Of a stretch of DNA of 64,000 nt, positions 229 through 46,345 are shown piece by piece. The stretch's first letter is position 1. Each line of letters starts with the position of its first letter. The position numbers and the translations under genes were made by a program. Source of the DNA: Cyanidioschyzon merolae (Eukaryota); the NCBI GenBank assembly GCA_000091205.1, contig AP006490.2; one strand, given 5' to 3'. Under the pieces are notes generated by a model. The model worked only from the letters and a program-made list of their open reading frames with translations. It made no database searches and had not been told where the DNA came from.

Positions 229-709
229 AAATACATGGACCTAAACAGACAACATAGCACAGTTTGAAGCAGTCATGACGCGCCAACGTGCCGTGCGTAT
301 GCGTCGCAGCAGCTCAGCGCCCAATGTTTTCCGCGTTACGAAATCGACGTTTCTTATCCTGGCAACCCTGGATGTGCGCTGGTTATCGATAGCTATGGAC
401 GCTCCAGCGTAGACCGCCTCAGCGCTGGCTAGTAGACGCTATCGTCACGAGAGCGCCTACCGCCGCAGCACACTTGTTTGACAGATCTGAATCTTATTGT
501 AACATTACGTATAAAAATATATCTTATGGTCACGGGTGCATTGCGGCGGCGGCGATCGTCGGCGTCGATGCCCCTTGTCTCCCGTAGCCTGCATCGGCAG
601 CCTGTCTGGCGTTTGCACGAGCTTTGTTTCGAGCGCGCTGCACCACCCTAGGACACGAGGTGTCGACAACGTACCTCGTTCCGTGAGCAGTGTCTAGAGA
701 TCGAACGTC

Positions 710-12495: not shown

Positions 12496-13199
12496 GTGGT
12501 CGTTTTTCTGCGGCAGTGAACACGTTGCCTAGTCTTCCGGAAAGTCTGAAGCCAACTGGAAAACGCTGCGTTGCTGCACTACTGCAGCGAGTCCTGTTTG
12601 AGAGCACGGGCCTGTGCTGGGTGTTGTTGTGGCTGCGCAAGGTGTCAGTGCCGGGTGTTGTTGTGTGATGCTTTCCGCGAAGAGGCGATGCAGAGCGCTG
12701 TAACTTGGGCTATTATGAGTCCAGAACCAGGGTCGTCACGCTAGAGCTTTCTTTGGAACAAGTCAGTTCCAAGATTGTACAGTATGATGTGCGGAACAGC
12801 GCTGCTGCGCGCGTTGTAACCTGTTCAACTTCTTTTCCAGAAACGCAGTGTTGAACGTGCGTGAAGAGTTTTGGGCTTCGATGAGCCTTGCTTGCGCTGC
12901 ACTAGTTCTGGTGCTACGATTGAAACCGGACCGGGTACAATACTCTATGCCAAAGGCGGCTCGGAACCGAGACTTGACCACAGCATAGCGAGCCCTCGAG
13001 GCCTTTTGCGGGTACGCGCTTGCCGCTTCTTGCGGACCGGGCCAACGCAACGCTTGCACGTGCAAACGTACCGTTGTGTTTCGTGACGTGACGTCGTCGC
13101 AGGAAAGAAACTCGAATCCCAGACTCGGGTGCGTACCGTTTCGGCGATATGGATACGAGGGCGTGTAGTCTTTCAACCCGAGTGCGATTCACCCCCAGG

Positions 13200-13725
13200 T
13201 GCATGATTTCAAATGCTTTTTCGCGGTTTATAGCAGATGCGTTCCAAGTGCGTGCATTTTGAAGAAATAATTATCTAATGAAAAGGCATGGAGATGGAAG
13301 GCGGGGGATCCTAGAGGGCCGGTGTCATCGGGGGCCGGAAAAGTAACGAAAAGAAATCCACTTCTCGCCGGCCAACGAGCGACAAAGAGCAAGGAATGAA
13401 GAAGAAGAAAGAGAAGCGGCGCGAGAGACGGGAATGTATTGGTACACAGGGCACGAGGTCCCGGCATCCTTGTAATGGTGCGTTCCATCAGCGGCAAGAA
13501 ACGGATGGAGTTCGTGAACCAAGACTTCAACGCAGTCATCAAAATCAGACGGTGTGCAGTGCTGAAGAGAAGAGACTCGAGGAACTGACGCAATCCAATT
13601 TTGCGGGGTTACCTTTCAGAGTCGAAGTGTACAACGAGAAACTCAAGCCGATAGCAGCCGGCCGGTCAAACAAGACTGGGAGGCGTCTGCGGGTGCGTAT
13701 GTGTATATACCCTCCATGGTCGTGA
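13200..13725 (+). mobile_element. Internally deleted (MITE-like) derivative of the TnpB/Fanzor-like element: about 250 bp of the 5' region fused to about 270 bp of the 3' terminus
   Basis: 13205-13290 'gctttttcgcggtttatagcagatgcgtt...' matches the copy at 27600-27700 ('gctttttcgcggtttagagcagagacgtt...'), with weaker homology to about 13450. 13455-13720 then encodes '...MEFVNQDFNAVIKIRRCAVL...VEVYNEKLKPIAAGRSNKTGRRLRV'. This matches the element C-terminus and its 'ggccggtc...gggaggcgtctgc' 3' module. Confidence 0.6.
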
Positions 13726-14327
13726 AACGTTGTTCGTTTTAATGGTCACATATAGCATGCGACTCAACGGAATGCTGCGACGCAGAAACGACCTACCGAC
13801 CTCAGTATCCATCATGCGTACTCTGCAAGCGTGGTCGGAACAGGTTCGTGGCGGGCCAGTCATGGACCATTGCATACGCTGCCACGAAGCTGAACGGGAT
13901 ACTGGACCCTTGTCGATGTATTCGACGACGACGTACGACTTGAAACTGTGATGATATTTGGTTTTACAAATGCCGCTGGTACATCCATGCCTGCGCACTT
14001 GAGCTTGTCTCTGCAATGTTCCCCGAATACCATCGCGCGCTTTAGATCATCAATACCTGTATTGCCAGAGATAAGCATATCGTATAAATTCGGATCATGT
14101 CTTCACATGGTTTGCATTGATTTCGATATCAACAGCTCGCACAGCGTGCCCCAGGCTGAGGCGTCGAGCGTCGCCTCGAGGTCGCGAGACGCTGCCAAGA
14201 GGTGCCGATGTGCCTTTGCGCAGCGTCTTCGCAGCGGGCCCAGCGCGTACCATACGTAACCGGCAACGCTGCACATGAATCCATGCCCTGCCACAGACCG
14301 ATGAACACATGACCTGTTTAACGAATC

Positions 14328-15908
14328 TTAGCTGTTCGGCCAGGCAACTGGAATCCGCAGCCTCGCCAAAACCGCAGAATGATCCGAGAGCGAAAAGTCC
14401 TCTTCAGGAAAAATGCGGGTTCGTGCCGCCTCCGGCACCGTGTAGCGATAGATGCGCACCGCACCGTTTTCGTCGCCATGCGCTATAACGGGTCCCTGCC
14501 GCGGATCAAACAGCAAATAATCGATACACTTTCCGTCATCAGTGATGGGATGCATCCCGCTGTGGGCAAGGCTGACTAGGTCGACGACCTGGAGGGCAGC
14601 GCCTTGTCGCGGTGCGCTTCCAAAGCGCTGCATCAGCTCCCGATACCAACGACTTTCATGCGGATTCTCCGGCGAGATTCGGGCGTTGATGTTGAAATCG
14701 CCAGTGATGAGTACCGGCCCTGCGTCATCCGCGACCTTGCGTGCGATAAAGTCACGCATTTCCTCCGCTTGATGAAAGCGAATCTCGGCGTGGTAGGCCT
14801 CCGGTTCATAGCCCGGTCGATCACCTGCTTGCATGTGCGTGCTGAAGATATGCAAGTAGCGTGCATTGGTCTGGCTCTCGACCCGCTTCGCTTGAACTGT
14901 GCTTGAAGGAAACGCGGAGCGATTCCATTTGCGCGGGAAGTCGGCAGGCCAGTACACTGGCAACTCAATGCGCGCATAGAGCACGCCCTTACCAACCAGC
15001 GCGTCGATCGTGTGGTACACCACGTTTCGATAGTGAATATAGTCCCATGCAACGATCGGGAAACGGCTGAAGATGCTGACGCCTCCATCGACGAATTTCG
15101 GAGGTATGCCAAGGATCCGCTTTGGCAGATAGACATGGTGGCGCAGGCCGTATTCCTTGAGCGCCGCCTGCATGGCTGAACGGCGATTGCTGTAGGCATC
15201 AAAGAGCTCTTGGAAGCATATGATGTCGAAGGAGGCAAGCTCAGGGAGCAGAAGTTTGAGGCGCTCATCTTTCAAGTCGTCACCGCTGGAGCCGGACACA
15301 CCTGGCGGCCGTACGCATATATTGTATGAGAGGAGGCGTACCGGCAGGCCCCGGCTACATACGTCATCCAACGCCGGGTCGGCGAAGAGGCGCGCTCTGT
15401 GCTGCCGCGCCACAGCGATGTATTCGCGGGTCCGGCGTCGATAGCTGTTCACCAACGTTGCTGCACCGAGCAGGAGCAATGCAAGGCCGAACGCCAGGGC
15501 AACAATATTCACCTTGGTCCGGTGAGTCTGCAAAAACCCTCTGCCACCACCAGTATTCGACAGGAAAAAATACGCAGCACCAGAGTCGAGAAACGCTTCG
15601 CTCGAGTCGCTATTCGCACGTGCTCCGAAGTACACAAGACCCAGGCTTGCGGCAGGTAGAGTTAACATAAGAACAGGAAACAGCTTGCGCACACTGACGC
15701 CAAGAAGTGTGGCCTTTCGCACCTGCTGGAACGAGAAGAACAAGGCCAGCAGCAGCTCAGAGATAACGGTGACGCCAAGTGCGAGCCAACAACCTCTTTG
15801 TGTTATCCACTTTCTCCACCAGGTGCTCCAACGTTCCACAGCATGAGACACAGCCGATGCTAATCCAATGCATACCTGAGTTGCATATGTACTCGCATCT
15901 GATTCCAT
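14328..15908 (-). CDS. Endonuclease/exonuclease/phosphatase (EEP) family membrane protein, neutral-sphingomyelinase-like
   Basis: EEP domain 'LLSYNICVRPP...FDIICFQELFD...VLITGDFNINAR...SDHSAVLARL' follows about three predicted TM helices. The ORF is 526 aa. Confidence 0.7.
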   Translation of the reverse strand: MESDASTYATQVCIGLASAVSHAVERWSTWWRKWITQRGCWLALGVTVISELLLALFFSFQQVRKATLLGVSVRKLFPVLMLTLPAASLGLVYFGARANSDSSEAFLDSGAAYFFLSNTGGGRGFLQTHRTKVNIVALAFGLALLLLGAATLVNSYRRRTREYIAVARQHRARLFADPALDDVCSRGLPVRLLSYNICVRPPGVSGSSGDDLKDERLKLLLPELASFDIICFQELFDAYSNRRSAMQAALKEYGLRHHVYLPKRILGIPPKFVDGGVSIFSRFPIVAWDYIHYRNVVYHTIDALVGKGVLYARIELPVYWPADFPRKWNRSAFPSSTVQAKRVESQTNARYLHIFSTHMQAGDRPGYEPEAYHAEIRFHQAEEMRDFIARKVADDAGPVLITGDFNINARISPENPHESRWYRELMQRFGSAPRQGAALQVVDLVSLAHSGMHPITDDGKCIDYLLFDPRQGPVIAHGDENGAVRIYRYTVPEAARTRIFPEEDFSLSDHSAVLARLRIPVAWPNS

Positions 15909-22821: not shown

Positions 22822-23351
22822 AACATTCATGTGATATCGATTGCATAAATTGGATATAAAGGCTTGTTGGCGTCCGCTCCCACGCGCAGTTGGACAATCA
22901 TGACTTTAGCGTATATTTATGTATTAAACGGACACACTTCTCTGCATTCCGTTTTGCGGCTCTCCGCATGGGTGTCGATCACGGCTAGGCGAGCCCATTC
23001 CGAGCAACTAGGCGTCAATCGCTGGCGCTGCGACCCACGGACTGATAGGACGCGCTTTAGACAGAATGGCCCATTGTCTTGCTCCTAGCGCGCTGCGTGC
23101 CGCGTCTCCATACGCGTCGGACTCGTCGCGGCAACGTTGCGAAGACCCGTCGCCTCCGCGGCTGTTCGTTTTGTACACGGCAGAGCGGCGACTCGGTCCT
23201 GGACCATGCGCGTGATGCCTGTCGTCGCCCCGCAAAACGGCTGTCTCTCTAAGCGCTACACGTTTGCGCATTGTTTGCGTGTCGGCATGACGCGCAACTG
23301 GCAGAACAGCGCCGTATAGCACTCGCACAGACGCGAGCGTGGACAGAAAAG

Positions 23352-23422
23352 CAGGTACAGGCATAGGTACAGGCATAGGTACAGGCATAGGTACAGGCAT
23401 AGGTACAGGCATAGGTACAGGT
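23352..23422. repeat. 12-bp minisatellite (GTACAGGCATAG)n, about 6 units. The homologous site in the other palindrome arm (about 27105-27125) has about 2 units.
   Basis: 'gtacaggcataggtacaggcatag...' run. It generates the (PMPV)n and (YACT)n artefact ORFs. Confidence 0.9.
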
Positions 23423-23620
23423 GTGGGCTCCAGGTCGGCCCCGGAGAAGGAAGCGTGTGCAAGTACCATGGCGGCTAAAAATCGTTCGCAAAATATCACT
23501 TTATAGGCATCGAGGCTACGCATCAACGCACGGACGATCACTCACTCGCTTTCCATAGGTCGTATCCTTCCTCCATTGCATCCGGTCTTCCTTACATCAA
23601 GGCTTTCACCGCTCTCCGCT

Positions 23621-23914
23621 TTAGTTCCCCTGGAACTTTTCCTTGGTGGCATCTGCTGCGTGCTCTATTCCTTTCTTCGCAGACTGACCGGTTTCCTTCA
23701 GGTGATCCACTGCATCACCCGCCTTGTCTTGAGCTTTCTCCTGTGCGGACTTTTGCCCGGTGAGATCACGGAACTTGTCAGAGATCGTCTCCTTCGCCGA
23801 TGAAAACGCACCAGTGACAGACTCTTTCGCAGAATCCAAAGCGCCACCCGCTTTCTTCTCCGTATCTTTGAGAGCCGACTGTGCTGAGCTTGTATCTTGA
23901 GCTCCGGAAGACAT
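23621..23914 (-). CDS. Small hydrophilic stress-protein-like gene, copy A (97 aa; CsbD/LEA/Con-6-like, K/E/A/Q/G-rich)
   Basis: 'MSSGAQDTSSAQSALKDTEKKAGGALDSAKESVTGAFSSAKETISDKFRDLTGQKSAQEKAQDKAGDAVDHLKETGQSAKKGIEHAADATKEKFQGN*'. The paralog in the other arm has the same length and about 75% aa identity. The listed ORF 23621..24934 is a chance read-through from the upstream element. Confidence 0.6.
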   Translation of the reverse strand: MSSGAQDTSSAQSALKDTEKKAGGALDSAKESVTGAFSSAKETISDKFRDLTGQKSAQEKAQDKAGDAVDHLKETGQSAKKGIEHAADATKEKFQGN

Positions 23915-24040
23915 ATCACAATTTATAATGCTTTCGTAAACTCGAAAAATGCATATGCAAATGAGGTACCACGGCGCGCGCGGTGGCCGCACAGCCACAA
24001 ACACAGGAGATTTTACCGCAACAGGACCCGCACGCACCGC

Positions 24041-25320
24041 AGTTTGAAAGTCGAACGACGGCGGTGTACAGTAGCGGCGAACGATGCGCCCTAGACGACG
24101 TCTCCAACTGAGGTGCAGACGCCTCCCGGCCTTTTTGGACCGGCCACCCGCTACTGCTTCCAACTTTTTCTCAAATAATTCCACTTTGGGAGGTTGTCCA
24201 ATAACGTTCTCTCGTGGCAACTCTGGAGGTCTGCTCTCGAGCACCGCACATGTCGTTATCTTGATAGCGGCGTTAAAGTCTCGGTTCACAAACTCCATAC
24301 GTTCCGTGCCATCATTGGTTGTACTTACTAATGCAAGCAGTCCCCGAACTTTCGCCCTCCTTTCCATTTGCGCTTCCGTCAGCGGTCCGTACTTTGCTAT
24401 TCCCTCAGGGCTGCTCCGACACTTTTCTATCTCGACACTTTGAAGTGTACACCCCAGTTCATGGTGTGTATACGATGTTCGGAACTCATCTATCGATATC
24501 GTAACAAAACGTCGTGCACACTCTATGTACGTTCTCGTCGTTAGAGCTGGTGTACACCTTTTTTGGGTCTTCCAGCGCCCTGATCCGTACGCTACTACCA
24601 GCCTTTGGCTCTCGTCCTCCTTCAGGGCGTTCAACTCATTGAAAAAGTTCGCGAGCACGCGCTGCCTCCCACCGTATAGACTCATTCGCAGACGAGCCCA
24701 CCGGGGCTTTGTATACTCCTCCCGTAGCGCCTCCCGATGAGGAACACGAACTTCCATGACTTTCCGAGAAGCTTGAAAGTGTGCTCCGCGGCCCGTCACC
24801 TCGCTCAAAGCTTCCAGGTGATCCTTCATTCCTGCATCCCATGCAGGAATTTTCTTCCTCGCATTCATGACTCCCGATTCTCGATAGTATCTTGCTCTCG
24901 GGAACCTCAAAAGACGCATGTCTTTCTGACGCAAGGAACCGTCAGTACTATCTTCCGCACGCTACGCTGCGCGATGGTTATGATACTCGTATTCTCAGGG
25001 TCCGCGCCAACGACAAAGCCGTTATCTTGCACTTTCTGCACCGCAGGATCCGCCTCCTTCTCATCTTCATGCTGCACCACGTCAACGACAAAGTCGTTAT
25101 CCTGCACTTTCTGCGTCGCGGTACCCGCCTCCTTCTCATCTTCTTGCTGCGCCACGTCAACGACAAAGTAGTTATCCTGCACTTCCTGTGTGGCAGGATC
25201 CGCCTCTTTGTTTTCTGCATCCTTCGTCACGGGCGGAGCCGAGGGCGGAACTGGCCGATCTGTCTTCAACCGCCGATAGTGTACACACAAGGCTACTCCA
25301 TCGGTTTCGATCATCCCAGT
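24041..25320 (-). mobile_element. TnpB/Fanzor-like element, copy 1. The 3' about 1.3 kb is present; the 5' end is truncated at the palindrome centre. It carries a frameshift shared with copy 3 and has lost its stop codon (TGA to TGT).
   Basis: ORFs 24907..25326 (- '...VGADPENTSIITIA') and 23621..24934 (- 'MRQKDMRLLRF...MEFVNRDFNAAIKITTCAVLE...GRSKKAGRRLHLSWRRRLGRIVRRY'). About 98% identical to the 3' half of the 27.4-30.1 kb copy. Confidence 0.8.
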
Positions 25321-25372
25321 GAACAACTTTTGTTTGCTGACTTTGAGCCGTTCGAAACTGAAGATATTCTTC

Positions 25373-26572
25373 GTTGGGATGATCGAAACCGATGGAGCAG
25401 CCTTGTGTGTACACTATCGGCGGTTTCAGGCGGATCATCCAGCTCCGTCTTCGACTTCGCCGGGACGGAGCATGAAGCGAAGAAAGAGGCGGATCGTGCC
25501 ACGCAGAAAGTGCAGGATAAAGAATTTCCCATTGACGCTACGAAGCATGAAGATGAGATGGAGGCGGATACCGCGACGCAGGAGATGCAGGATAACGACT
25601 TTGTCGTTGGCGCGGACCCTTGGAACACGAATATCATTGGCATGGCTGTACCCAAGCGTGCGGAAGATGGTATCAACGACAGCCCATTTCAGAGAGACAT
25701 GCGTCTGTTGAGATTCTCGAGAGCAAGATACTACCTAGAATTGGGAATCATGAATGCAAGGAAGGAAATTGAGGCATGGAATGCGGAAGTGAAAGAGCAT
25801 CAGGAAGCTTTGAGCGAGGTGACAAGCCGAGGAGCGGGCTTTCAAGCTTTTCTGAAATTCATGGAAGTTCGCATTGCGCACTGGGATGCATTGTGGGAGG
25901 AGTATACAAAGCCCCGGTGGGCTCGTTTGCAAATGAATCTATACGTTGGGAAGCAGCGGGCCTTCGCGAGTTTTTTCAATCAGTTGAGTGCCCTGAAGGA
26001 GGATGAAAATCAGAGGCTCGTAGTAGCGTATAGAGCAGGGCGCTGGGCGCCCAAGAAAGGCACTACGCCAGCTCCAACGACGGGGGCGTACAAGGAGTGC
26101 GCACGGCGTTTCGTCGCGATACCGATAGATGAGTTCCGTTCGTCCTATACACTCCATGAACTGGGGTGTACACTTCAGAGAGTGGAGATGGAAAAGTGCC
26201 AACGGAGCCCTGAGGAAATAGCAAAGTACGGACCTCTGACGGAAGAGCAAATGGAAAGGAGGGCGAAACTTCGGGGGCTACTTGCATTAGTAAGTACAAC
26301 CAGTGATGGCAAGGAACGTATGGAGTTTTTAAACCGAGACTTTAACGTCGCTATCAATTTAAGGAGATGTGCGGTGCTGGAGACGAGACCTCCAGAGCTG
26401 ACAAGAGAGAACTTTGTTGGACAACCGCCCAAAGTAGAACTATATGAGAAAATATGGAATCAGTAGTAGGTGGCCGGTCCAAAAAGGCTGGGAGGCGTCT
26501 GCACGTCAGTGGGAGATGTTTCGTCTAGGGCGCGTGCTTCGCCACTATTGTACACCGTTGGCGTCGTTCGAG
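25373..26572 (+). mobile_element. TnpB/Fanzor-like element, copy 2. The 3' about 1.2 kb is present; this is an older, more diverged subfamily member and is in-frame through the RuvC-I region.
   Basis: ORF 24892..26466 from '[16 protein letters not shown]' onward reads '...DNDFVVGADPWNTNIIGMA...ERMEFLNRDFNVAINLRRCAVLETRPPELTRENFVGQPPKVELYEK'. About 80% aa identity to other copies. The 3' module 'ggtggccggtccaaaaaggctgggaggcgtctgcacgtcag...gtacaccgttggcgtcgttcga' is present. Confidence 0.75.
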
Positions 26573-26605
26573 TGCGAAAGGTGTTCCCTTAGCGTCGCAG
26601 TGACA

Positions 26606-26899
26606 ATGTCTTCTGGGTCGCAGGATACCTCTTCTGGTCAATCAGTTCTCAAAGATGCCGAGGCGAAGGTAGGCAGTGCATGGGAATCCACGAAGGAGTC
26701 AGTTTCTGAAGCGTTCACTTCGGCCAAGGAGACTATCTCTGACAAGTATCGTGATCTCACCGGCCAAAAGTCCGCGCAGGAGAAAGCCCAAGACAAGGCG
26801 AGCGAGGCGGTGGATCACCTAAAGGAAACCGGTCAGTCCGCGAAGGAGAGTTTGCAGCACGCTGCAGATGCAGCCTCGGAAAAGTTAAAGGACGGCTAA
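26606..26899 (+). CDS. Small hydrophilic stress-protein-like gene, copy B (97 aa)
   Basis: 'MSSGSQDTSSGQSVLKDAEAKVGSAWESTKESVSEAFTSAKETISDKYRDLTGQKSAQEKAQDKASEAVDHLKETGQSAKESLQHAADAASEKLKDG*'. Same length as copy A, intact ORF, and it begins about 35 bp after the copy-2 element terminus. Confidence 0.6.
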   Translation: MSSGSQDTSSGQSVLKDAEAKVGSAWESTKESVSEAFTSAKETISDKYRDLTGQKSAQEKAQDKASEAVDHLKETGQSAKESLQHAADAASEKLKDG

Positions 26900-27703
26900 C
26901 GGAGAGAGCGTAGAAAGACTTGAGTGAAGGATGCACGGAAGTAAAACAGGAAGGATACGACCTATGGACAGCGAGTGAGTGATCGTCCGTGCGTTGATGC
27001 GTAGCCTCGATGCCTATAAAGTGATGTTTTGCGAACGATTTTTAGCCGCCATGGTACTTGCACACGCGTCCCGCTCCGGGGCCGACCCGCAGCCCACACC
27101 TGTACCTATGCCTGTACCTGCTTTCCTGTCCACGCCCGCGTCTGTGTGAGTGCTATACGGCGCTGTTCTGCCAGTTGCGCGTCATGCCGACACCCAAACA
27201 ATGCGCAAACGTATAGCGCTTATAGAGAGATAGTTGTTCCGCGGGGCGAGCGCCCGCAATCGCAGTCGAGGGCACAATCGACTCGATCGCTGCCGCACGG
27301 GGCGCGACGCATCGCACGCTGTGGTGCAGCGCAGCGCGTACCGGCCTCTGGAAGCAAGTTGTGCGCAGCAGCGATCTGAGGCCTTTATCCATCGGTGCAG
27401 CGTCTCGCGCGGTGCACGCATCGCGCTCGGTGAGCGTACCCGGGAGATCAGGCAGATATGAGACACGACGCGCATGTCGCCGCTGAAGGGAAACGCGATC
27501 CTGACCATTCGTTGACGTGTTGTTCTAACGTAAAACTTGTATTTGCATTGGAATCGTAACAGAATATATTGTTTCATCTCAGTCGTGTTTCAACCTTCAA
27601 GTAAAAATACTCGAGCGCTTTTTCGCGGTTTAGAGCAGAGACGTTAATAGTGCGTTCTAAATCAAAAAAAAAAAACTAAAAAAGGAAAGTTCTGGACAGC
27701 GAA

Positions 27704-30068
27704 GTGGAGGACCCTGGAGGGTCAGTATCGCTGGCAGGCGAGAAAAAAGGAGCAAAAGAGCCAAACATAGAAGAACGAGACAAGACGAAGAAGCAGACGG
27801 GGGAGGTCCTACGTCAATGGCTGCAAGAAAGACGACAGTACGACGAGATGGAGGTGAAAACCTGTCTTCTCGGCTATAGCAAGGATTCGTAGAAGAAAAA
27901 ATTGCGAGAGTCCATCAGAAACTGTGACGAGTCGGACTCCATGAGTTTTCGTAAGACTTCTTTAGGAATGATGCATCTAGCGAGGGAGATGTATCGCGAC
28001 GTGACGCACATGGAAACAGTCGATGTTCCAGAAAAATTTTGCAACAGGAACTTTATTCTTCACCTGATGCTTGGTACAGGGGAAACATCGAGGAGAAATG
28101 AGCGGGTTCACGCCCTCCACGAAAACTTCGCGGAATTCCGCTTCGAGGGTACTCGGTACAGAGGTGACTCGAATATTTACATATACGGGGCGATGAAGTA
28201 CCTCACGAATCTGAAGAACCATTTGACAGTGAACCTTGAACGTTTCATGAGACGCTCGGTGTTTGCACTCTACCGGGGCATCTCTCGCACAGGAATACGG
28301 GCGATTACCAATGGCATCACCAACGAGCACCAGAATGAAGATGAAGTCGAATTTGTCGACAAGAAGGCGTCAAACGAGCGCACGAATGAAGCCTCTGTAA
28401 TCCGTGCGGTTATACAAGAGCGCCGTGCAATCTTGGGGTTGGCGGATCCAATAGACAAGATACCAGAGTTGAAAAAAAATATAAGGAAAGACACTATCGC
28501 CTCATCCTGCGATATTTCGTGTTTTTGCACCGAGAGCCCGAACGCAGTGCGCAGATGAAGCCGAGTGAGGAAAAAATATGAAGAGTGGGAGAGACGGAAA
28601 GCTTTCCTAATGGGGAAGCGCTTCAACGTCGTTCCAATGTGCAGCATCAAGTCACATTTTGTGACTGTCGACCCAACGTACGTTACAGCAAATTGAAGGA
28701 GATCTGTCCGGAGTTCAATGTAAGGAAGACAGAGTTCGCCGGTGAAAACCGGGAGACGTACTGGAAGAACATCTTCAATTTCAAACGGCTCAAAGTCAGC
28801 AAACAAAAGTTGTTCACTGGGATGATCGAAACCGATGGAGTAGCCTTGTGTGTACACTATCGGCGGTTGAAGACAGATCGGCCAGTTCCGCCCTCGGCTC
28901 CGCCCGTGACGAAGGATGCAGAAAACAAAGAGGCGGATCCTGCCACACAGGAAGTGCAGGATAACGACCTTGTCTTGACGTGGAGCAGCATGAAGATGAG
29001 AAGGAGGCGGATACCGCGACGCAGAAAGTGCAGGATAACGACTTTGTCGTTGACGTGGTGCAGCATGAAGATGAGAAGGAGGCGGATCCTGCGGTGCAGA
29101 AAGTGCAAGATAACGGCTTTGTTGCTGGCGCGGACCCCGGGAATACGAATATCATCACCATCGCAGCACCGAGGCGTGCGGAAGATGGTACTGACGGTTC
29201 CTTGCGTCAGAAAGACATGGGTCTTTTGAGGTTCCGGAGAGCAAGATACTATCGAGAATCGGGAGTCATGAATGCGAGGAAGAAAATTCCTGCATGGGAT
29301 GCAGGAATGAAGGATCACCTGGAAGCTTTGAGCGAGGTGACGGGCCGCGGAGCACACTTTCAAGCTTCTCGGAAAGTCATGGAAGTTCGTGTTCCTCATC
29401 GGGAGGCGCTACGGGAGGAGTATACAAAGCCCCGGTGGGCTCGTCTGCGAATGAGTCTATACGGTGGGAGGCAGCGCGTGCTCGCGAACTTTTTCAATGA
29501 GTTGAACGCCCTGAAGGAGGACGAGAGCCAAAGGCTGGTAGTAGCGTACGGATCAGGGCGCTGGAAGACCCAAAAAAGGTGTACACCAGCTCTAACGACG
29601 AGAACGTACATAGAGTGTGCACGACGTTTTGTTACGATATCGATAGATGAGTTCCGAACATCGTATACACACCATGAACTGGGGTGTACACTTCAAAGTG
29701 TCGAGATAGAAAAGTGCCAGAGCAGCCCTGAGGGAATAGCAAAGTACGGACCGCTGACGGAAGCGCAAATGGAAAGGAGGGCGAAAGTTCGGGGACTGCT
29801 TGCATTAGTAAGTACAACCAATGATGGCACGGAACGTATGGAGTTTGTGAACCGAGACTTTAACGCCGCTATCAAGATAACGACATGTGCGGTGCTCGAG
29901 AGCAGACCTCCAGAGTTGCCACGAGAGAACGTTATTGGACAACCTCCCAAAGTGGAGTTATTTGAGAAAAAGTTGGAGGCAGTAGCGGGTGGCCGGTCCA
30001 AAAAGGCCGGGAGGCGTCTGCACCTCAGTTGGAGACGTCGTCTAGGGCGCATCGTTCGCCGCTACTGA
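27704..30068 (+). pseudogene. TnpB/Fanzor-like RuvC-family protein gene, disrupted (in-frame stop SKDS*; about 1-bp deletions near 28667 and 28960; a possible 100-nt GT..AG intron at 28530-28629)
   Basis: Reconstructed order: N-terminal '...MYRDVTHMETVDVPEKF...' is followed by a WED-like '...[36 protein letters not shown]'. An acidic 25-aa repeat of about three units precedes 'GADPGNT' (RuvC-I D). Next come '...LVVAYGSGRW' (RuvC-II position, Glu apparently replaced), a degenerate Zn-ribbon 'TSYTHHELGC...C', then 'NRDFNAAIKI' (RuvC-III D). Compare the TnpB consensus RDxNAAxNIxRRG. Confidence 0.7.
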
Positions 30069-30075
30069 ACCACTG
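29930..30075 (+). ncRNA. Candidate omegaRNA-like conserved 3'-terminal module, overlapping the ORF's last about 45 codons and ending at the element terminus
   Basis: A single string is conserved in all copies and in both solo fragments: 'ggtggccggtccaaaaaggccgggaggcgtctgcacctcagttggagacgtcgtctagggcgcatcgttcgccgctactg(tacaccgccgtcgttcgacttt)'. Short hairpins are visible: GGCC...GGCC, GAGG...CCTC, CGTCT...AGACG. By analogy, the TnpB/Fanzor guide RNA scaffold is encoded at the 3' end of the ORF and the right end. Confidence 0.3.
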
Positions 30076-30132
30076 GCGGCAGCGTTTTTCTTTTGAAAAG
30101 CGTTTGCTGCTCGGGGTGCTAGCGTTCCTGAA

Positions 30133-32073
30133 ATGGAACCGAAACCTACTGTGTTCAACTCTTTAACTCGTGAAAAGGAGCAGATTACCCTTTCATCGGA
30201 TCGCAGCTTTCTGAGCTGGTATATCTGCGGACCAACGGTCTACGATGCCGCACACGTGGGGCACGCGCGGAACTACGTCTCTTTCGACATCGTTCGACGC
30301 TTGCTCGTTGATTATTTCGGCATACCGGTACTTTATCAAATGAACATAACGGATGTTGACGATAAAATCATTCAAAAGTCGTTTGATTCTGGGGAGAGCT
30401 TCACAAACATAGCGCGTCGGTTCGAGGCGGACTTTTTCGACGACCTGGAAGCGCTGCACTGCCTGCCACCGGACGTTGTTACCCGAGTGACCGAGTACAT
30501 TCCTGAGATAACGGCATATGTTCGCAAACTTATGGAACGTGGATATGCCTACGAGGCGGCCTCTGGTTCCGTCTACTTTGACGTGGAAGCGTTTGAGCGA
30601 AGTGGACGACACCGTTTTGGGAAGCTCAGGCCTGCCGCTGCCGCAGCAGCAACGAGCGTTGAGACCCGACCGCATGCGGGTGCAAACGGGGTCGATCCTC
30701 CCAGCCTTGAGCAGCTCTCTGTCCAGGAAGAAAAACGGAACCCTCGAGACGCTGCTCTGTGGAAAGCCTCCAAGTCAGCAATGGAGCCAGGTTGGGAAAG
30801 TAACGGTCTAGCGCGGGGGCGTCCCGGCTGGCACATTGAATGTGCGGTCATGGCGTCGCTGGTCAGCTGTGCGGGTACGACACACTTGGATATTCACACC
30901 GGTGGTATCGATCTCGAGTTTCCGCATCATGACAATGAGATCGCGGAAGCGGAAGCGTACTTCGAGACCGACCTGTGGTCACGCTACTTTCTCCATTCGG
31001 GGCATTTGAATATTGAGGGCCTCAAAATGTCCAAATCGCTGAAAAATTTCATTACCATTCGTGAAGTTCTCCGTCGATGGAATTGGCGCCAACTACGTGT
31101 TCTGTTTCTCATGCACCATTACCAGACGACCATGAACTATTCTGAAGAGAGCATGACACATGCGGCAGCAGTCGAAAGGACCATCCAGGAATTTATGCGT
31201 TCTACAGAGGCAGAGCTGCGGGCGCACTTGCCCGAGGAACGCCATCGGAAGCCCACAAAAGTCGATCTAGAGCTCTTATACCAGGTACTGCCTGCAACTG
31301 AGGCCACTGTTCGTGCCCACCTGAGCGACAACTTCAACACACAGGACGCGTTGCAGGACTTGCTTACACTGATTCGCACGGTGAATCTCCATCGGCATGA
31401 AACACCGGGGGGCGTTGGATACGCCACTCTACATCACATACGCAGCTCCGTCGGTCGTATACTATCTTGTTTCGGTCTTGACTACGACGTCAAGGATGAT
31501 GTCGCGTCCCAGGGCGGAGCTGCACTGGCCTCCGTCGAACCGTGGATTCAGGGGGCCGTGCGCCTCCGCGACCAGATTCGCGAAGTTGTACTTTCGGCGG
31601 ATGCAAATACTGACGCGAACGCCCTCAAAGAAAGTATTCTTGCGGTGTGCGACGAGTTTCGGGATGCGGTATTACCGCCTCTGGGGGTACGGCTCGAGGA
31701 TCGGACGTATCCGAAACCAGCAATCTGGAAATACGATGATCCTGCGGCTATTCAGGCGGACATCGAGCAGCGGCGGCAAGCCGAAGCTGCGCGAGCAGCG
31801 GAGAAAGAGGCCCGTCGTAGAGAAGCGGAACAGCGGCTCTTGAAAGAGCTCGAACAAGGTCGCACGCATCCTAGTCAAATGTTCCTGGACCCGAGTCTCT
31901 ATTCCCAATGGCGAGAGGACGGCATTCCGACGCATGACGCCGAGGGTCGCGAACTCGAAAAATCTCGCGTGAAGCGACTCTTGAAAGAGCAACAGCGTCA
32001 AGAGCGTCTACATCGCAAATTTCTGGAAGCACAGGCTTCGGGCCTCTTGTCCAAACTTGGCATGGAGCCTTGA
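30133..32073 (+). CDS. Cysteinyl-tRNA synthetase (class I aaRS), 646 aa
   Basis: HIGH motif 'AAHVGHARNY' and KMSKS motif 'KMSKSLKNF' are present and the protein is collinear with CysRS. The Lys/Arg/Glu-rich C-terminal extension is typical of eukaryotes. Confidence 0.9.
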   Translation: MEPKPTVFNSLTREKEQITLSSDRSFLSWYICGPTVYDAAHVGHARNYVSFDIVRRLLVDYFGIPVLYQMNITDVDDKIIQKSFDSGESFTNIARRFEADFFDDLEALHCLPPDVVTRVTEYIPEITAYVRKLMERGYAYEAASGSVYFDVEAFERSGRHRFGKLRPAAAAAATSVETRPHAGANGVDPPSLEQLSVQEEKRNPRDAALWKASKSAMEPGWESNGLARGRPGWHIECAVMASLVSCAGTTHLDIHTGGIDLEFPHHDNEIAEAEAYFETDLWSRYFLHSGHLNIEGLKMSKSLKNFITIREVLRRWNWRQLRVLFLMHHYQTTMNYSEESMTHAAAVERTIQEFMRSTEAELRAHLPEERHRKPTKVDLELLYQVLPATEATVRAHLSDNFNTQDALQDLLTLIRTVNLHRHETPGGVGYATLHHIRSSVGRILSCFGLDYDVKDDVASQGGAALASVEPWIQGAVRLRDQIREVVLSADANTDANALKESILAVCDEFRDAVLPPLGVRLEDRTYPKPAIWKYDDPAAIQADIEQRRQAEAARAAEKEARRREAEQRLLKELEQGRTHPSQMFLDPSLYSQWREDGIPTHDAEGRELEKSRVKRLLKEQQRQERLHRKFLEAQASGLLSKLGMEP

Positions 32074-43399: not shown

Positions 43400-43732
43400 T
43401 CGACGGACAACGTACCAGGTTTTTTCGTCGTTCCAAACAGGTTCTGGATCTCGATGTGGTAACGCAATATCTTTGCCAGAATAAATACAGGACGCGTGTC
43501 CACGCAGCGCCTCCAGCTAAACGAAAGCGAGTTCCGGGCCCAGGTGCGTACGCCGCAGACGGACCGGAATCCTTCTACGAGGACTCGAAACTCGCAAGTG
43601 ACTGTTTGATGGAGCTTCTCGGTGATCCGCGGCGGAGTGAGCTCTTCATCGCCTTGACTGCAGCAGCGGAAAGCGGATGGGACTTTGTCGCGCTGGCTGC
43701 GCGATCGGCGAAGCCTGTGCTCACACACCAAC
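43400..43732 (+). pseudogene. Trehalase gene fragment. 43562-43732 is about 95% identical to 49329-49501 of the intact trehalase gene. Upstream there is weaker protein-level similarity ('RVHAAPPAK' vs 'RYHAPAAEG').
   Basis: 'ccggaatccttctacgaggactcgaaact.gcaagtgactgtt.gatgga.cttctcggtgatccgcggcggagtgagctcttcatcgccttgactgcagcagcggaaagcggatgggactt' is shared. The fragment's 'ESGWDFVALAAR' is a degenerate version of the trehalase 'ESGWDFSSRW' motif. It ends about 12 bp before the right end of the 43.7-kb element. Confidence 0.75.
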
Positions 43733-46046
43733 AACGCCGCTCTAAAGTCGAACGACGTCGGGCGTGTACAGTAGTGGCAGCAACCGCGCCCTCGACAAGA
43801 CGTCTCCAACTGACGCGCAGACGCCTCCCCGTCTTATTGGACCGGCCACCGATTACTGCTTCCAACTTTTTCTCATATAGTTCCACTTTGAGAGGTTGCC
43901 GCACAAAATTCTCTCTTGTCAGCGCTGGAGGTCTTCTTTCCAGCACCGCACATCTCCTGATATTGATAGTGGCATTAAAGTCTCGATTCACAAACTCCAT
44001 ACGCCTCTTGCCATCATTGGTTGTACTTACTAGTGCAAGTGGCCCTCACACTTTTGCCCTCCTTTCCATTTGCTCCTCCGTCAGCGGTCTATACTTCTTT
44101 ACATCTTCAGGGCTCCTCTGGCACTTTTCCATCTCGACCCTCTGAAGTGTACAACCCAGCTCGTGGTGTGTATAAGATGTTCGGAACTCATCTATCGGTA
44201 TTGTAACGAAACGCCGTGCGCACTCCTTGTACACCCTCGTCGTTGGAGCTGGCGTAGCTCCTTTCTTGGGCGCTCAGCGCCCTGCTCCGTACGCTACTAC
44301 CAGCCTTTGGCTCTCGTCCTCCTTCAGGGCGTTCAACTCATTGAAAAAGTTCGCGAGCACGCGCTGCCTCCCACCGTATAGACTCATTCGCAGACGAGCC
44401 CGCCGGGGCTTTGTATACTCCTCCCGTAGCGCCTCCCGATGAGGAACACGAACTTCCATGACTTTCCGAGAAGCTTGAAAGTGTGCTCCGCGGCCCGTCA
44501 CCTCGCTCAAAGCTTCCAGGTGATCCTTCATTCCTGCATCCCATGCAGGAATTTTCTTCCTCGCATTCATGACTCCCGATTCTCGATAGTATCTTGCTCT
44601 CGGGAACCTCAAAAGACGCATGTCTTTCTGACGCAAGGAACCGTCAGTACTATCTTCCGCACGCTACGCTGCGCGATGGTTATGATACTCGTATTCTCAG
44701 GGTCCGCGCCAACGACAAAGTCGTTACCCTGCACTTTCTGCGTCGCAGGACCCGCCTCCTTCTCATCTTCCTGCTTCACCGCGTCAACGACAAGATCGTT
44801 ATCCTCCACCTCCTGCGTCGCAGGATCCGCCGCTTTGTTTTCTGCATCCTTCGTCACGGGCGAAGCCGAGAGCGGGACTGAACGATCTTTCTTCAACCGC
44901 CGATAGTGTACACACAAGGCTACTCCATCGGTTTCGATCAACCCAGTGAATACCTTTTGTTTGCTCATTTTGAGCCGTTTGAAATTGAAGATGTTCTTCC
45001 AGTACGTCTCCAGGTTTTCACCGATGAACTCTTCCCTGTTAACATCGAACTCGGGAATGATCTCCCTCATGATGCCATAAAGGATTCTGGAGTCGATAGT
45101 CACAAAATGTGACTTGAAGTTGCACAACGGAACGACACTGAAGCGCTTACCCACTAGGGCAGCCTTCCGTCTCTCCCACTCTTCATTTTTCTCTCACTCA
45201 GCTTCATCTCTGCCTTGCGTTTGAGTTCTCGGTCCAAAATCACGAAATACCGCAGGACGAGGCGATAGTATCTTTCCTTATCTTTTTCAACTCTGATATC
45301 TTTTCTGTTGGATTAACCAACCCCAGTACCGCACGATGCTCTTGTATAACCGCGCGGATGACGGAATCCTCATTCGTGCTCTTGTTTGACGCCTTCTTGT
45401 CGACGACTTCGACCTCATCTTCATGCTTACGATCTTTCGTGATGCCATTGATAATCGCCCATTTTCCATTGCGAGATAGGCTCTGGTAGAGTGCAACCAC
45501 GGCGCGTATCATGAAACGTTCGAGGTTCGCTGTCAAATGGTTTTTCAGATTCGTGAGGTACTTCATCGCCCCATATGTGTAAATATCCCCGTCACCCTTG
45601 TATCGAGTACCATTGAAGCTGTAAAAGGGATGTTTTTCGTGGAGGGCATGCATTCGCTCGTTTTCCCTCCGCGCTTCCCCTGTAACAAGCATCAGCTGAC
45701 GAATAAAGGTCATGTCGAAAAACTCGTCCGGAATTTCGACTGTTTCCATATGCGTCACGTCGCGATACATCTACCTCGCCAAATGCATCAGTCCTGACGA
45801 CGCCTTGACAATACTCTCGGAGTCTGACGCAACACGTTTTTCGATAGCGTCTCGCAACGTTTCCCTGTTGGGATCCTTGATATGTTTAAGAAGACAGCCT
45901 TTAACCACCATCTCGTCGTACAGTTGTCTTTTTTGCCGGCTTCGACGTAGGACCTCACCTTTTGCTTCTTTTTCTCTTCCTTTTCTTCTGGAATCGGCAC
46001 TGTTTTTTGTTTTTTTTTCTGGCAGCCGGCGACACTGGGCCTCCAA
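43575..46046 (-). pseudogene. TnpB/Fanzor-like protein gene of copy 3, disrupted
   Basis: Same domain order as the 27.7-30.1 kb gene. The N-terminal half is about 75% aa identical to that copy and the C-terminal half about 98%. Confidence 0.7.
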
Positions 46047-46345
46047 GATCGTGGACTTGCTTTTTCATATCTTTCCTTTTTTTGTTTTTTTTGAAAAGGA
46101 ACGCTCTTTGGACGCTTGTGGTATATGCTGCGAAAAAACACTTGACTAGACTTGTTTGAAGTTTTAAACAAAAATGAGCTGAAAGACTGTACTTTGCTAC
46201 GAACTGAACGGAAATCCAACTTTTTACAGCTGAACAACACGCTTCTGATCGAGATCACGTTTCCCTTCAACGGCGAGATACATGTCGTGTCTCATGTCTG
46301 CCTGATCTCCCAGGTGCGCTCACCGATCGATGAAGGTCACGTGTC
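43745..46345 (-). mobile_element. TnpB/Fanzor-like element, copy 3. Near full length, minus strand. It carries a nonsense mutation (E to stop before MYRDVTH), the frameshift shared with copy 1, and others.
   Basis: Minus-strand ORF pieces 45771..46046, 45240..45770, 44609..45154, 44274..44636, 44046..44234 (other frame) and 43575..44000. The last reads 'MEFVNRDFNATINIRRCAVLERRPPALTRENFVRQPLKVELYEKKLEAVIGGRSNKTGRRLRVSWRR'. The 3' terminus is '...ctactgtacacgcccgacgtcgttcgacttt'. Confidence 0.8.

Follow-up and report, generated by a model that had tools for sequence, protein, structure and literature searches.

Introduction

[quoted passage not shown] According to that report, the consensus of the element measures 3,169 bp and the CMe-1 protein 734 aa, approximately 150 copies exist genome-wide at ~80% identity to the consensus, TIRs are absent, TSDs were undetermined, and the 5′ region is related to TE-N2_CMe. 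Some CMe-1A copies were also found to retain intact ORFs despite ~20% divergence, which implies selection. CMe-1A is a ~3.2-kb non-TIR element, the single ORF of which encodes CMe-1, a TnpB homologue of the Fanzor1 clade. A DPG motif and a Glu in an alternative position have been described as signatures of Fanzors (PMC10711439, PMC10530073; Yoon et al. 2023, Jiang et al. 2023).

The CMe-1A family is therefore not new, having already featured in the paper that established the Fanzors; the copies described below are dead. The novel elements of the present analysis are the conserved 3′-terminal hairpin, the alternative 5′ regions, the restriction of genuine truncation to the 5′ side, and the existence of a zinc-finger-less clade.

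A decayed CMe-1A element on chromosome 8

The stretch of DNA analysed, 64,000 nucleotides in length (hereafter, the window), is located on chromosome 8 of C. merolae 10D: the products of the neighbouring genes CysRS, CRT-like transporter, UBP15 and CMH080C are sequence-identical to proteins of this strain (BAM79767/79771/79775/79780). An origin in a giant virus or an oomycete, which the composition of the window had brought into consideration, is ruled out by this identity. Related sequence occurs at four places within the window, here termed copies A to D, with 79-98% mutual DNA identity (self-BLAST, MAFFT). The region at 27,380-30,104 (copy A) is a decayed copy of CMe-1A, the Fanzor1-encoding transposable element of C. 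merolae. Its features are as follows:

About 27,380-30,104 (+): copy A, a CMe-1 pseudogene without most of the 5′ region (blastn, boundary reading)
27,692-30,068 (+): degenerate Fanzor1 frame of copy A (tblastn, ORF list, three-frame translation)
28,807-28,866 (+): conserved 'IETDGVA' β-hairpin, just upstream of RuvC-I (HMM alignment)
28,901-29,124 (+): three tandem 75-bp (25-aa) repeats, an acidic linker from the TDG hairpin to RuvC-I (repeat search, copy alignment)
29,127-29,165 (+): RuvC-I motif with the DPG signature and catalytic Asp (alignment)
29,643-29,687 (+): IDEFRTSYTHHELGC, the relocated RuvC-II Glu followed by the first CxxC position, HHEL (alignment with P0050/P0051)
29,850-29,879 (+): RuvC-III motif NRDFNAAIKI (alignment, profile)
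29,981-30,104 (+): conserved 3′ end, proposed omega-RNA scaffold and/or transposition end (column identity, folding)

The published CMe-1A consensus aligned with all four copies at 83-88% identity (blastn), and the published CMe-1 protein spans both A and B, from residue ~1-4 to 730-734 (tblastn). As in the published family, the host is C. merolae, TIRs are absent and TSDs are undetectable, and nucleotide identity of ~80% or more extends over most of the element; the 5′ ~635 bp shared with TE-N2_CMe is present in neither A nor B. A sequence-only reading of the window had considered that the family may be undescribed and that it had been recently amplified. The clustering of several related sequences within 64 kb is compatible with this proposal, as is the lack of a named Pfam domain, the precomputed Pfam match being merely a DUF (PF26935/DUF8286). 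Nevertheless, it is almost certainly wrong, since the DNA and protein consensuses in print since 2013 match the window copies and the supplementary CMe-1 consensus protein includes the very motif strings that had been quoted. Furthermore, the copies are old (~80-88% identical to the consensus in general, and 84-88% by the comparison bearing on amplification) and every one is broken, while the sole near-identical pair, A and C at 98%, lies within one locus adjoining an inverted duplication and reflects local duplication or gene conversion; recent amplification is thereby refuted. We consider it highly probable that the locus is explained as a whole by decayed CMe-1A copies and by a mechanism (active site, 3′ omega-RNA) that would be shared with Fanzor1 homologues.

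Positions 671-3169 of the consensus correspond to 27,446-30,102 of copy A at 84-87% identity (blastn), and self-BLAST and MAFFT placed this copy at 27,424-30,070 (+). Residues 1-730 of CMe-1 are split over three frames of copy A, with 62-80% identity in three pieces (tblastn), the longest open piece being 362 aa (28,980-30,068). The frames of A and of B can be rebuilt only across at least two frameshifts and several stops each. An ORF of about 720 codons, previously attributed to all copies, is intact in none, as frameshifts and stop codons interrupt all four; since the window copies are all pseudogenes, the protein cannot be made from any of them. The peptides that had been quoted (WED-like, RuvC-I, IDEFRTSYTHHELGC and NRDFNA) were located in copy A at 28,807-29,879. 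The RuvC-III string had been given as NRDFNA(A/T)INIRR, which is exact in copy B only (NRDFNATINIRR), with A reading NRDFNAAIKITT and D reading NRDFNVAINLRR. The DPG motif is intact in A (GADPGNT), whereas B and C read DPE at this site and D reads DPW. The number of 75-bp repeats also differs between elements.

Further copies and their origin

The remaining CMe-1A-related sequences in the window are the following:

13,163-13,731 (+): internally deleted old derivative, consensus 785-968 joined to 2862-3084 at 74-75% (blastn)
24,047-25,372 (−): copy C, a 5′-truncated 3′ half, left arm of an inverted duplication (self-BLAST, blastn)
25,375-26,571 (+): copy D, a 5′-truncated 3′ half, right arm of the same duplication (self-BLAST, blastn)
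43,722-46,992 (−): full-length copy B, a pseudogene with a 5′ region of 675 bp ('class 1'; blastn)
47,160-47,351 (−): old 3′-end fragment, lying upstream of copy B and ~170 bp from its 5′ end (consensus search)
57,383-57,944 (−): 5′-region-only copy, TE-N2_CMe-like, consensus 5-567 at 73% (blastn)
57,968-58,444 (+): 5′-region-only copy, TE-N2_CMe-like, consensus 151-617 at 79% (blastn)
60,577-60,700 (+): old 3′-end fragment (consensus search)

Copy B is 79-88% identical to A over 46,329-43,786 (−), and consensus positions 660-3137 correspond to 46,319-43,764 at 85-88% identity. Copy C, aligned with A over 25,372-24,066 (−), shares 98% identity with its 3′ half and matches consensus 1976-3140 at 87%. 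Copy D, aligned over 25,367-26,553 (+), is 82% identical to A and matches consensus 2030-3145 at 83-87%. The four copies are thus present where they had been placed previously, with the true limits of A and B being wider. The earlier count of six related sequences needs revision in two respects: C and D are the two arms of a single inverted duplication, which also takes in a flanking host gene, and the short derivatives, formerly put at two, proved more numerous when the published consensus was used as the query.

Copies C and D arose via inverted segmental duplication, and C was later homogenised with A. This raises the question as to whether the multiplicity of the element in this repeat-rich patch is due mainly to segmental (inverted) duplication and gene conversion as opposed to repeated transposition, which we regard as probable. 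C and D lie head-to-head with no spacer and a common 5′ truncation point, their flanks (a 97-aa LEA-like gene plus ~650 bp each) are likewise inverted repeats with 78% identity, and C is 98% identical to A yet its duplication partner D just 82%. However, unrelated flanks and distinct modes of truncation are seen in copies A and B and in the fragments located at 13.2, 47.2, 57.4-58.4 and 60.6 kb, so that no fewer than five or six separate insertion events must still be assumed, and the ~150 copies scattered across the genome (PMC3627910) also speak for transposition.

The 5′ part of the element proved to be variable. Consensus positions 1-660 gave no alignment to A or B in the blastn comparison of the CMe-1A consensus with the window. 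The 675-bp 5′ region of copy B (46,320-46,992) is common to other loci; it was considered as the published TE-N2_CMe-like head and rejected as such, as it differs from the published consensus. Because the published 5′ part does not align and B carries this different region, A and B are, by sequence comparison, a CMe-1A subfamily with an alternative 5′ part. The two 5′-region-only copies at 57,383-58,444 are arranged head-to-head. At least three interchangeable 5′ regions occur among CMe-1A-type elements.

CMe-1 belongs to the Fanzor1 clade

A profile (A1), for which the reconstructed protein was combined with its relatives, was searched against PDB sequences (hmmsearch). It matched PpFz1 (9CF0; E=9.6e-20), SpuFz1 (8GKH; E=4.4e-14) and GtFz1 (9CER; E=1.7e-3), and no Fanzor2 or TnpB chain at E≤1; 6,317 representative clusters are matched by the profile. 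For structural comparison, P0001, the one intact relative, was modelled with AlphaFold (AF2). The best seven Foldseek matches of this model were all Fanzor1 proteins (SpuFz, GtFz, PpFz) with E-values of 8e-11 to 1.5e-8 and a probability of 1.00, followed by Cas12f at E=0.14. The model itself is modest (pLDDT 59, pTM 0.38), and its TM-scores to Fanzor1 structures are 0.23-0.33; global superposition is therefore poor. Both profile similarity to characterised Fanzor1 proteins and a Fanzor1 fold thus assign CMe-1 to this clade.

The catalytic D...E...D positions align with those of canonical Fanzors. Copy A and the family consensus both contain GADPGNT, with P and G invariant in alignment A1. The canonical RuvC-II strand reads VVAYGAGRW, without a Glu, and the alternative Glu is found ~6 residues before the first CxxC position, where IDEFRTS aligns with DEFRTSKCCASCG of P0050/P0051 and with DEFRTS of PpFz1. 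The RuvC-III block RD(x)NAA(x)NI is represented by NRDFNAAI(K/N)I. Outside the active site, the TDG motif of the 'IETDGVA' hairpin aligns with the TDG of PpFz1 and SpuFz1 (HMM alignment), and in the P0001 model the matching residues form part of strands 350-358 and 362-370. At the position of the 75-bp-repeat linker, this model is disordered. The N-terminus is Lys/Arg-rich. The recognition, from raw sequence, that a multi-copy element of a eukaryote here encodes a RuvC protein of the TnpB/Fanzor type is hence borne out by the Fanzor1 profile and Foldseek matches and the aligned D...E...D, and significant similarity to Fanzor1 extends beyond the RuvC-III motif.

The Pfam models proposed for this comparison gave a negative result for this family: the window ORFs were not matched by PF01385 or PF07282 at E≤1, nor were P0001 and the relatives of ~30% identity at E≤0.1. 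Only the distant zinc-finger-bearing relatives P0050/51, which align over 92% of the length, gave scores with PF07282, of 25-26.9 bits against a cutoff of 26.3. The silence of the Pfam TnpB models on this family is due to loss of the C4 zinc finger and not to lack of homology.

Zinc-finger loss and nuclease competence

The C4 zinc finger is a hallmark of the NUC domains of TnpB and Fanzor proteins. A Zn-ribbon position had been marked in the sequence-only reading, where in fact the cysteines are lost: the first CxxC position reads HHEL and the second region ALVSTTNDGK. Both CxxC pairs were called strictly conserved by Bao & Jurka (PMC3627910), and SpuFz1 keeps both, whereas CMe-1 has neither. 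Since Pfam matches and CxxC pairs are both missing, nuclease competence of an intact CMe-1 is not guaranteed.

It may be asked, therefore, whether CMe-1 and its zinc-finger-less relatives are RNA-guided nucleases any longer, or instead serve in RNA/DNA binding, as transposition accessories, or persist as relics. In a regex census, the zinc finger was found to be missing in 115 of the 143 nearest representative relatives; in addition, just one of 71 related metagenomic loci carries an intact ORF, and no in vitro cleavage was seen for CrFNuc-1, a Fanzor from an alga (PMC10530073). Loss of nuclease function nonetheless appears unlikely to us, because the zinc-finger-less clade keeps its catalytic positions (DPG in 136/143, RDxNAA in 123/143, and a nearly universal DEFRTS Glu), which is not as expected of an inactivated nuclease, and because the intact ORFs among diverged CMe-1A copies imply selection (PMC3627910).

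The conserved 3′ end and the mode of transposition

The 3′ end is where the omega-RNAs of Fanzor elements are encoded. In CMe-1A, the best-conserved part of the element is the 3′ ~125 nt, made up of the terminal portion of the ORF and of ~60 nt of sequence that is non-coding in the consensus; column identity is 0.8-0.99 up to the boundary and collapses beyond it. Conservation ends at a terminal hairpin (30,081-30,104 in copy A), at which the published CMe-1A consensus also stops. The last 124 nt of the consensus fold with z=-3.75, and the terminal 30 nt form the most stable window within the last 170 nt. Most copies possess a hairpin at the extreme 3′ end, which exists in two sequence versions with pairing kept in both, and at one locus this terminal position is occupied by a perfect hairpin of unrelated sequence; the boundary is often followed by short (GNT)n-like tracts. 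RNAalifold predicted no consensus structure for 38 independent 3′ ends, and no covariation above shuffled controls was detected with a transferred consensus-MFE structure (81% paired cells), MAFFT misaligning the register of the two hairpin types. Rfam gave no match in the window at gathering thresholds. From these sequence properties, we propose the 3′ end as a candidate omega-RNA scaffold and/or transposition end.

Genuine 5′-truncated copies exist, and genuine 3′-truncated copies do not, all apparent 3′ truncations being contig edges. A repeat search found no TIRs in the element. For 12 copies with defined ends, the longest word shared by the flanks was 4-6 nt in length, compared with a mean of 5.9 for the background, and a few G/T-rich look-alikes of TSDs were judged to be due to chance. 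Among the window ORFs, which were screened for a transposase partner or a reverse transcriptase, only host genes were found; an Exo_endo_phos ORF at 14,328-15,908, considered as a LINE endonuclease, was rejected, being host gene CMH080C.

The hairpin could alternatively be primarily a signal for transposition in trans and not an omega-RNA stem, acting via RNA, in a manner resembling the 3′ stem-loop and simple-repeat tails of stringent LINE/SINE pairs, or via ssDNA, resembling the right ends of IS200/IS605 or the 3′ hairpins of Helitrons. The 5′-only truncation, absence of TIRs, preserved pairing across two hairpin versions, unrelated hairpin at one locus, (GNT)n-like tracts and at least three interchangeable 5′ regions are all in agreement with this possibility. 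We consider it doubtful, however, as TSDs do not rise above background, neither the window nor the element contains an ORF of the reverse transcriptase, HUH or RepHel type, no Helitron-type CTRR end was found, and the covariation test was not significant. Moreover, the two roles are compatible: the right-end region of IS200/IS605 serves both transposition and the omega-RNA.

Proposed function and significance

By homology to SpuFz1, GtFz1 and PpFz1, an intact CMe-1 would act as a nuclear RNA-guided dsDNA endonuclease. As in Fanzor1 proteins, its Lys/Arg-rich basic N-terminus would provide the nuclear localisation signal, and its split RuvC active site would be composed of the Asp of GADPG, the relocated Glu of DEFRTS and the Asp of NRDFNAA. 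The omega-RNA may be transcribed from the conserved 3′ ~125 nt and end in the terminal hairpin at the boundary, with the guide portion, on the Fanzor1 model, presumably read from the DNA flanking the element.

The locus provides a positive control, in that a TnpB-type nuclease so highly diverged as to be missed by Pfam was identified by reading the raw sequence. Motif searches for Fanzors that require CxxC would miss the large zinc-finger-less clade nearest to CMe-1. Furthermore, the bounded 3′ hairpin and the 5′-truncation pattern provide testable hypotheses on the movement of transposase-less elements, for which Cyanidioschyzon hot-spring metagenomes may be employed. A more far-reaching proposal is that CMe-1 is the first protein to have been noticed from a large sub-clade within Fanzor1, one that lacks the zinc finger, keeps D-E-D and spreads by a mechanism undescribed for Fanzors. 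The lack of a transposase and TIRs, the interchangeable 5′ regions, the 5′-only truncation, and the selected 3′ hairpin with its repeats would suggest such a mode of spread, though we believe the proposal as a whole to be quite improbable. If true, the sub-clade would encompass hundreds of representative clusters, the spread would be by retroposition or by hairpin-dependent single-strand transfer in trans, and the 3′ hairpin would also provide the final stem of the guide RNA.

Comparison with known systems

The window copies share with the published CMe-1A the organism, the 734-aa protein, the motif strings, the absence of TIRs and a 3′ hairpin ending in ...GCGTTTTTCTTTTGAAAGGCG, with 83-88% DNA identity over consensus ~660-3169. 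They differ in possessing two to three units of a 75-bp repeat, of which the consensus has one, and in being pseudogenes throughout.

Compared with the characterised Fanzor1 proteins SpuFz1, PpFz1 and GtFz1, CMe-1 is alike in the TDG hairpin, the RuvC-I DPG, a helical insert, the DEFRTS Glu and RuvC-III, as well as in its basic N-terminus, single ORF and conserved 3′ element end. In contrast, identity in the structural alignment is ~12-13%, the NUC domain is devoid of a C4 zinc finger, RuvC-I is preceded by an acidic linker of 25-aa tandem repeats, and CMe-1A has no associated transposase or TIRs.

With TnpB of IS200/IS605 elements (e.g. ISDra2), the common layout is that of a RuvC gene with a conserved 3′ and element end, and the RDxNAAxNI block of RuvC-III and a (sub)terminal right-end hairpin are shared. 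CMe-1 differs in having DPG instead of D-hydrophobic-G and a Glu in the alternative position, in lacking the zinc finger, a TnpA partner and a Pfam match (E≤1), and in residing in a eukaryotic nuclear genome. Finally, Fanzor2 proteins (e.g. ApmFz2, IS607-type) and CMe-1 both belong to the eukaryotic or viral RuvC nucleases derived from TnpB, but no Fanzor2 is found among the profile or fold matches of CMe-1, CMe-1A has no serine recombinase, and CMe-1 possesses the longer N-terminal half typical of Fanzor1.

Identity and decay of the CMe-1 copies

Self-BLAST of positions 27,001-30,400 against the window, together with a MAFFT alignment, recovered four related stretches (copies A-D, A being the one under study) close to where the sequence-only reading had placed them. 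The published consensus DNA of the C. merolae transposable element CMe-1A (Bao & Jurka 2013, PMC3627910) matches all four, and its Fanzor1 protein, CMe-1, maps on copy A (residues 1-730) and copy B (residues 4-734). The element family is therefore already known, and the suggestion that it was undescribed is refuted.

CMe-1 elements and derivatives in the window, with matches to the published 3,169-bp consensus
27,424-30,070, plus strand: copy A (self-BLAST/MAFFT); 27,446-30,102 matches consensus 671-3169, 84-87% identity
46,329-43,786, minus strand: copy B, 79-88% identity to A; 46,319-43,764 matches consensus 660-3137, 85-88%
25,372-24,066, minus strand: copy C, 98% identity to the 3' half of A; 25,372-24,061 matches consensus 1976-3140, 87%
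25,367-26,553, plus strand: copy D, 82% identity to A; 25,375-26,563 matches consensus 2030-3145, 83-87%
13,163-13,731: internally deleted old derivative, consensus 785-968 joined to 2862-3084
47,160-47,351: old 3' fragment (published consensus as query)
60,577-60,700: old 3' fragment (published consensus as query)
57,383-57,944 and 57,968-58,444: the published 5' region by itself, as two copies in head-to-head arrangement

[quoted passage not shown] The element is about 3 kb long (3,169 bp in the supplementary table, with a 734-aa single-exon protein), has no TIRs, undeterminable TSDs and an unknown class, and shares its 5' 635 bp with TE-N2_CMe. The supplementary protein file of the same paper contains the 13-letter RuvC-I string quoted in the sequence-only reading, DEFRTSYTHHELGC and NRDFNAAINIRR. 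Furthermore, rhodophytes were listed among Fanzor hosts by Jiang et al. 2023 (PMC10530073).

The shared reading frame of about 720 codons that had been proposed does not exist in the window: three-frame translation revealed no intact ORF in any of copies A-D. Copies A and B each carry several stops and at least two frame changes, in copy A no open stretch exceeds 362 aa (28,980-30,068), and the DPG of RuvC-I is degraded to DPE in copies B and C and to DPW in D. The peptide strings quoted earlier are all found in the window, the exact NRDFNATINIRR in copy B only. Recent amplification is likewise refuted, since the copies have diverged from the consensus by 12-16% and every one is inactivated. 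The original observation was real but overstated, right as to the kind of element and wrong as to its novelty and age. The window copies do nothing apart from filling intergenic space.

In the derivative at 13,163-13,731, a 5' UTR/N-terminal coding part is fused straight to a C-terminal/3' end part. Its 3' tail (...GTATGTGTATATACCCTCCATGGTCGTGAAACGTT...) differs from that of the main family and recurs in both old 3' fragments of the window (47.2 kb and 60.6 kb) and in one fragment of the metagenomic locus L061.

Genomic setting and local history

The premise of a eukaryotic genome is correct. Four ORFs are sequence-identical to proteins of C. merolae 10D, all located by locus tag on chromosome 8, and the composition of the window (~55% GC, intron-less genes on both strands) is consistent with this genome.

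Host genes in the window
4,608-7,052: UBP15, identical to BAM79767.1
14,328-15,908: ORF with locus tag CMH080C, identical to BAM79771.1
30,133-32,073: cysteinyl-tRNA synthetase (CysRS), identical to BAM79775.1
42,012-43,370: CRT-like transporter, identical to BAM79780.1
23,621-23,914, minus strand: 97-aa LEA-like/apolipoprotein-like gene, left flank of C/D
26,606-26,899, plus strand: 97-aa LEA-like/apolipoprotein-like gene, right flank of C/D

The 3' end of copy A (base 30,104) lies 29 nt upstream of the CysRS start codon. Metagenome contigs with an identical CysRS (L001-L003) break 100-300 nt upstream of it, at the repeat.

Copies C and D are truncated at the same point and lie face to face without a spacer, and their flanks are inverted repeats of 78% identity (23,225-23,914 versus 27,249-26,606); C and D are thus the two arms of one inverted duplication. 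Each arm comprises a 5'-truncated CMe-1 3' half, the LEA-like gene and ~650 bp of flank. The whole of 23,225-27,249 forms a near-perfect palindrome centred near 25,370, with arms 78-82% identical. Since copy C is 98% identical to A as against 82% to its partner D, later gene conversion between C and A is suggested. Two copies joined head-to-head at their (often truncated) 5' ends, 0-24 bp apart, were seen in three separate cases: window 57,383-58,444, window 25,372/25,375, and loci L046, L047 and L063 around 560-665.

The element ends

For comparison, 71 related loci were fetched from metagenomes, mostly on Cyanidioschyzon-like contigs. Only one, L004, retains an intact reading frame with the three catalytic motifs; its product, P0001, was called at 752 aa, with 819 codons between stops.

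Alignment of the loci revealed a sharp 3' boundary, with column identity of 0.8-0.99 collapsing directly after ...TTCGACTTTCGAAAGGCGTT. In copy A the boundary falls at base 30,104, and it coincides with the end of the published consensus. As the published ORF stops at consensus position 3110, the last ~60 conserved nt are non-coding. The terminal 24-27 nt fold into a hairpin in most copies (30,081-30,104 in A; equivalents in B, C, D and L004-L074). Two sequence versions occur, both preserving the pairing, with stems of ~11-12 bp and ~10 bp. Between them one G-C pair is replaced by U-A, a double change, and there are several wobble-compatible single changes. In locus L031 an unrelated perfect 13-bp hairpin takes this position. 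Within the last 170 nt, stability peaks in the terminal 30-nt window, and the consensus 124 nt of the 3' end gave a folding z of -3.75. However, RNAalifold returned no consensus structure for the 3' ends, and the number of covarying pairs there was not above that of shuffled controls; RNA structure at the 3' end is therefore plausible rather than demonstrated.

Simple sequence of (GNT)n-like type often makes up the first 7-30 nt beyond the boundary (window 43,715-43,722 and 30,105-30,120; ~20 loci), for example GATGGTG, GTTGGTG, GGTGGTGGTG, GCTGCTGCTG and GGCGGTGGCGG. Insertion preference for such targets, or a tail acquired on insertion, could account for this.

Among the relatives, the common Fanzor-coding body is joined to any of at least three unrelated 5' regions, each 400-675 bp long or more; the junction lies near consensus ~660-700.

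5' regions, and 3'-end modules upstream of class 1
Class 1: window 46,320-46,992 (copy B); L007, L008, L029, L038, L060, L072
Class 2 (published type): L017, L020, L040, L041, L051, L058, L073
Class 3: L016, L019, L022, L025, L033
3'-end module: window 47,160-47,351 (upstream of 46,992); L038 ~1,230-1,330; L007 ~920-1,020; L072/L060 ~1,520-1,950

Copy A retains just the last ~65 bp of the class 1 region of copy B. Some copies are genuinely truncated at the 5' end, whereas apparent truncations at the 3' end all proved to be contig edges. At three independent loci, the 3'-end module of another copy, hairpin included, sits 25-170 nt upstream of a class 1 region; either insertion beside 3' ends already present or a composite structure of the element could explain this.

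No TSDs were detectable at the element ends, and neither the element nor the window encodes a transposase or reverse transcriptase. The ends are compatible with a hairpin-dependent mechanism acting in trans, by an RNA or single-strand DNA route.

The encoded protein is a Fanzor1

The Pfam comparison proposed earlier did not recover the family: raw window ORFs matched no TnpB-type domain at E≤1, because the C4 zinc finger has been lost. A 707-aa frameshift-corrected protein was rebuilt from copies A and B and used as a search query. It retrieved 43 close relatives from hot-spring metagenomes (53-85% identity), six at ~30% identity, and two more distant ones, P0050/P0051, which align across 92% of the length with 25% identity. 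The latter (VDEFRTSKCCASCG...RRCDSTDC..FVDRDDNAARNI) score about at the model threshold against Pfam Cas12f1-like_TNB/OrfB_Zn_ribbon.

A family profile made from the rebuilt protein and the relatives found with it matched the solved Fanzor1 sequences PpFz1 of Parasitella (E=9.6e-20), SpuFz1 of Spizellomyces (E=4.4e-14) and GtFz1 of Guillardia (E=1.7e-3). P0001, the sole intact relative and 72% identical to the rebuilt protein, was modelled with AlphaFold2. The model is of modest quality (pLDDT 59), with strands and helices where RuvC elements are expected. In a Foldseek search of the PDB with this model, seven Fanzor1 structures ranked first (E 8e-11 to 1.5e-8, probability 1.0), followed by Cas12f at E=0.14. 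The significant profile and structural similarity whose absence was to have refuted the Fanzor/TnpB assignment is thus present, and the assignment holds, specifically as Fanzor1. At E≤1e-3 an exhaustive profile search returned 6,317 representative clusters, of which 841 also reached E≤1e-30.

Between the TDG beta-hairpin and RuvC-I lies a 75-bp tandem repeat encoding an acidic segment of 25 aa (28,901-29,124; 25,001-25,231; 25,469-25,616; 44,704-44,858), with three units in A and C, two in B and D, one in the published consensus and four in P0001. This segment is predicted to be disordered.

Loss of the zinc finger and proposed function

Fanzors are distinguished from ordinary TnpBs by DPG at RuvC-I, loss of the canonical RuvC-II Glu and an alternative Glu before the zinc finger (PMC10711439, PMC10530073). 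The CMe-1 family carries DPG, lacks the canonical RuvC-II glutamate and has the alternative glutamate just before the zinc-finger position. The C4 zinc finger, regarded as strictly conserved by Bao & Jurka (PMC3627910), is absent from the family alignment: HHEL stands where the first CxxC would be, and the region of the second is likewise devoid of cysteines. Of the 143 full-length representatives nearest to CMe-1 (clusters of relatives of at least 450 aa, P0044-P0198), DPG is present in 136 and RDxNAA in 123, but CxxC pairs in only 25-28; the finger is missing from 115, and relatives without it mostly retain DPG, the DEFRTS glutamate and RDxNAA. The loss is not pseudogene decay. Regex searches for Fanzors that demand CxxC would overlook such relatives.

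In precomputed Pfam annotation, many family members, P0001 included, are assigned weakly to PF26935 (DUF8286). It seems, therefore, that a DUF entry for the zinc-finger-less Fanzor1 group exists with no link to TnpB/Fanzor.

Characterised Fanzor1 enzymes suggest how an intact CMe-1 would act: its basic N-terminus would direct it to the nucleus, and it would bind an RNA transcribed from the element's own conserved 3' end. Guided by flank-derived sequence, it would then use its split RuvC site to cut matching DNA beside a TAM. The hairpin lying exactly at the element boundary would suit the final stem of the scaffold, ahead of the guide. Loss of the zinc finger leaves a low but appreciable chance that this clade has another activity. 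The family differs from SpuFz1, which has the C4 zinc finger, and aligns with the solved Fanzor1 proteins in the 'TDG' hairpin, RuvC-I, the helical insert, 'DEFRTS' and 'nRDxNAAxNIr'.
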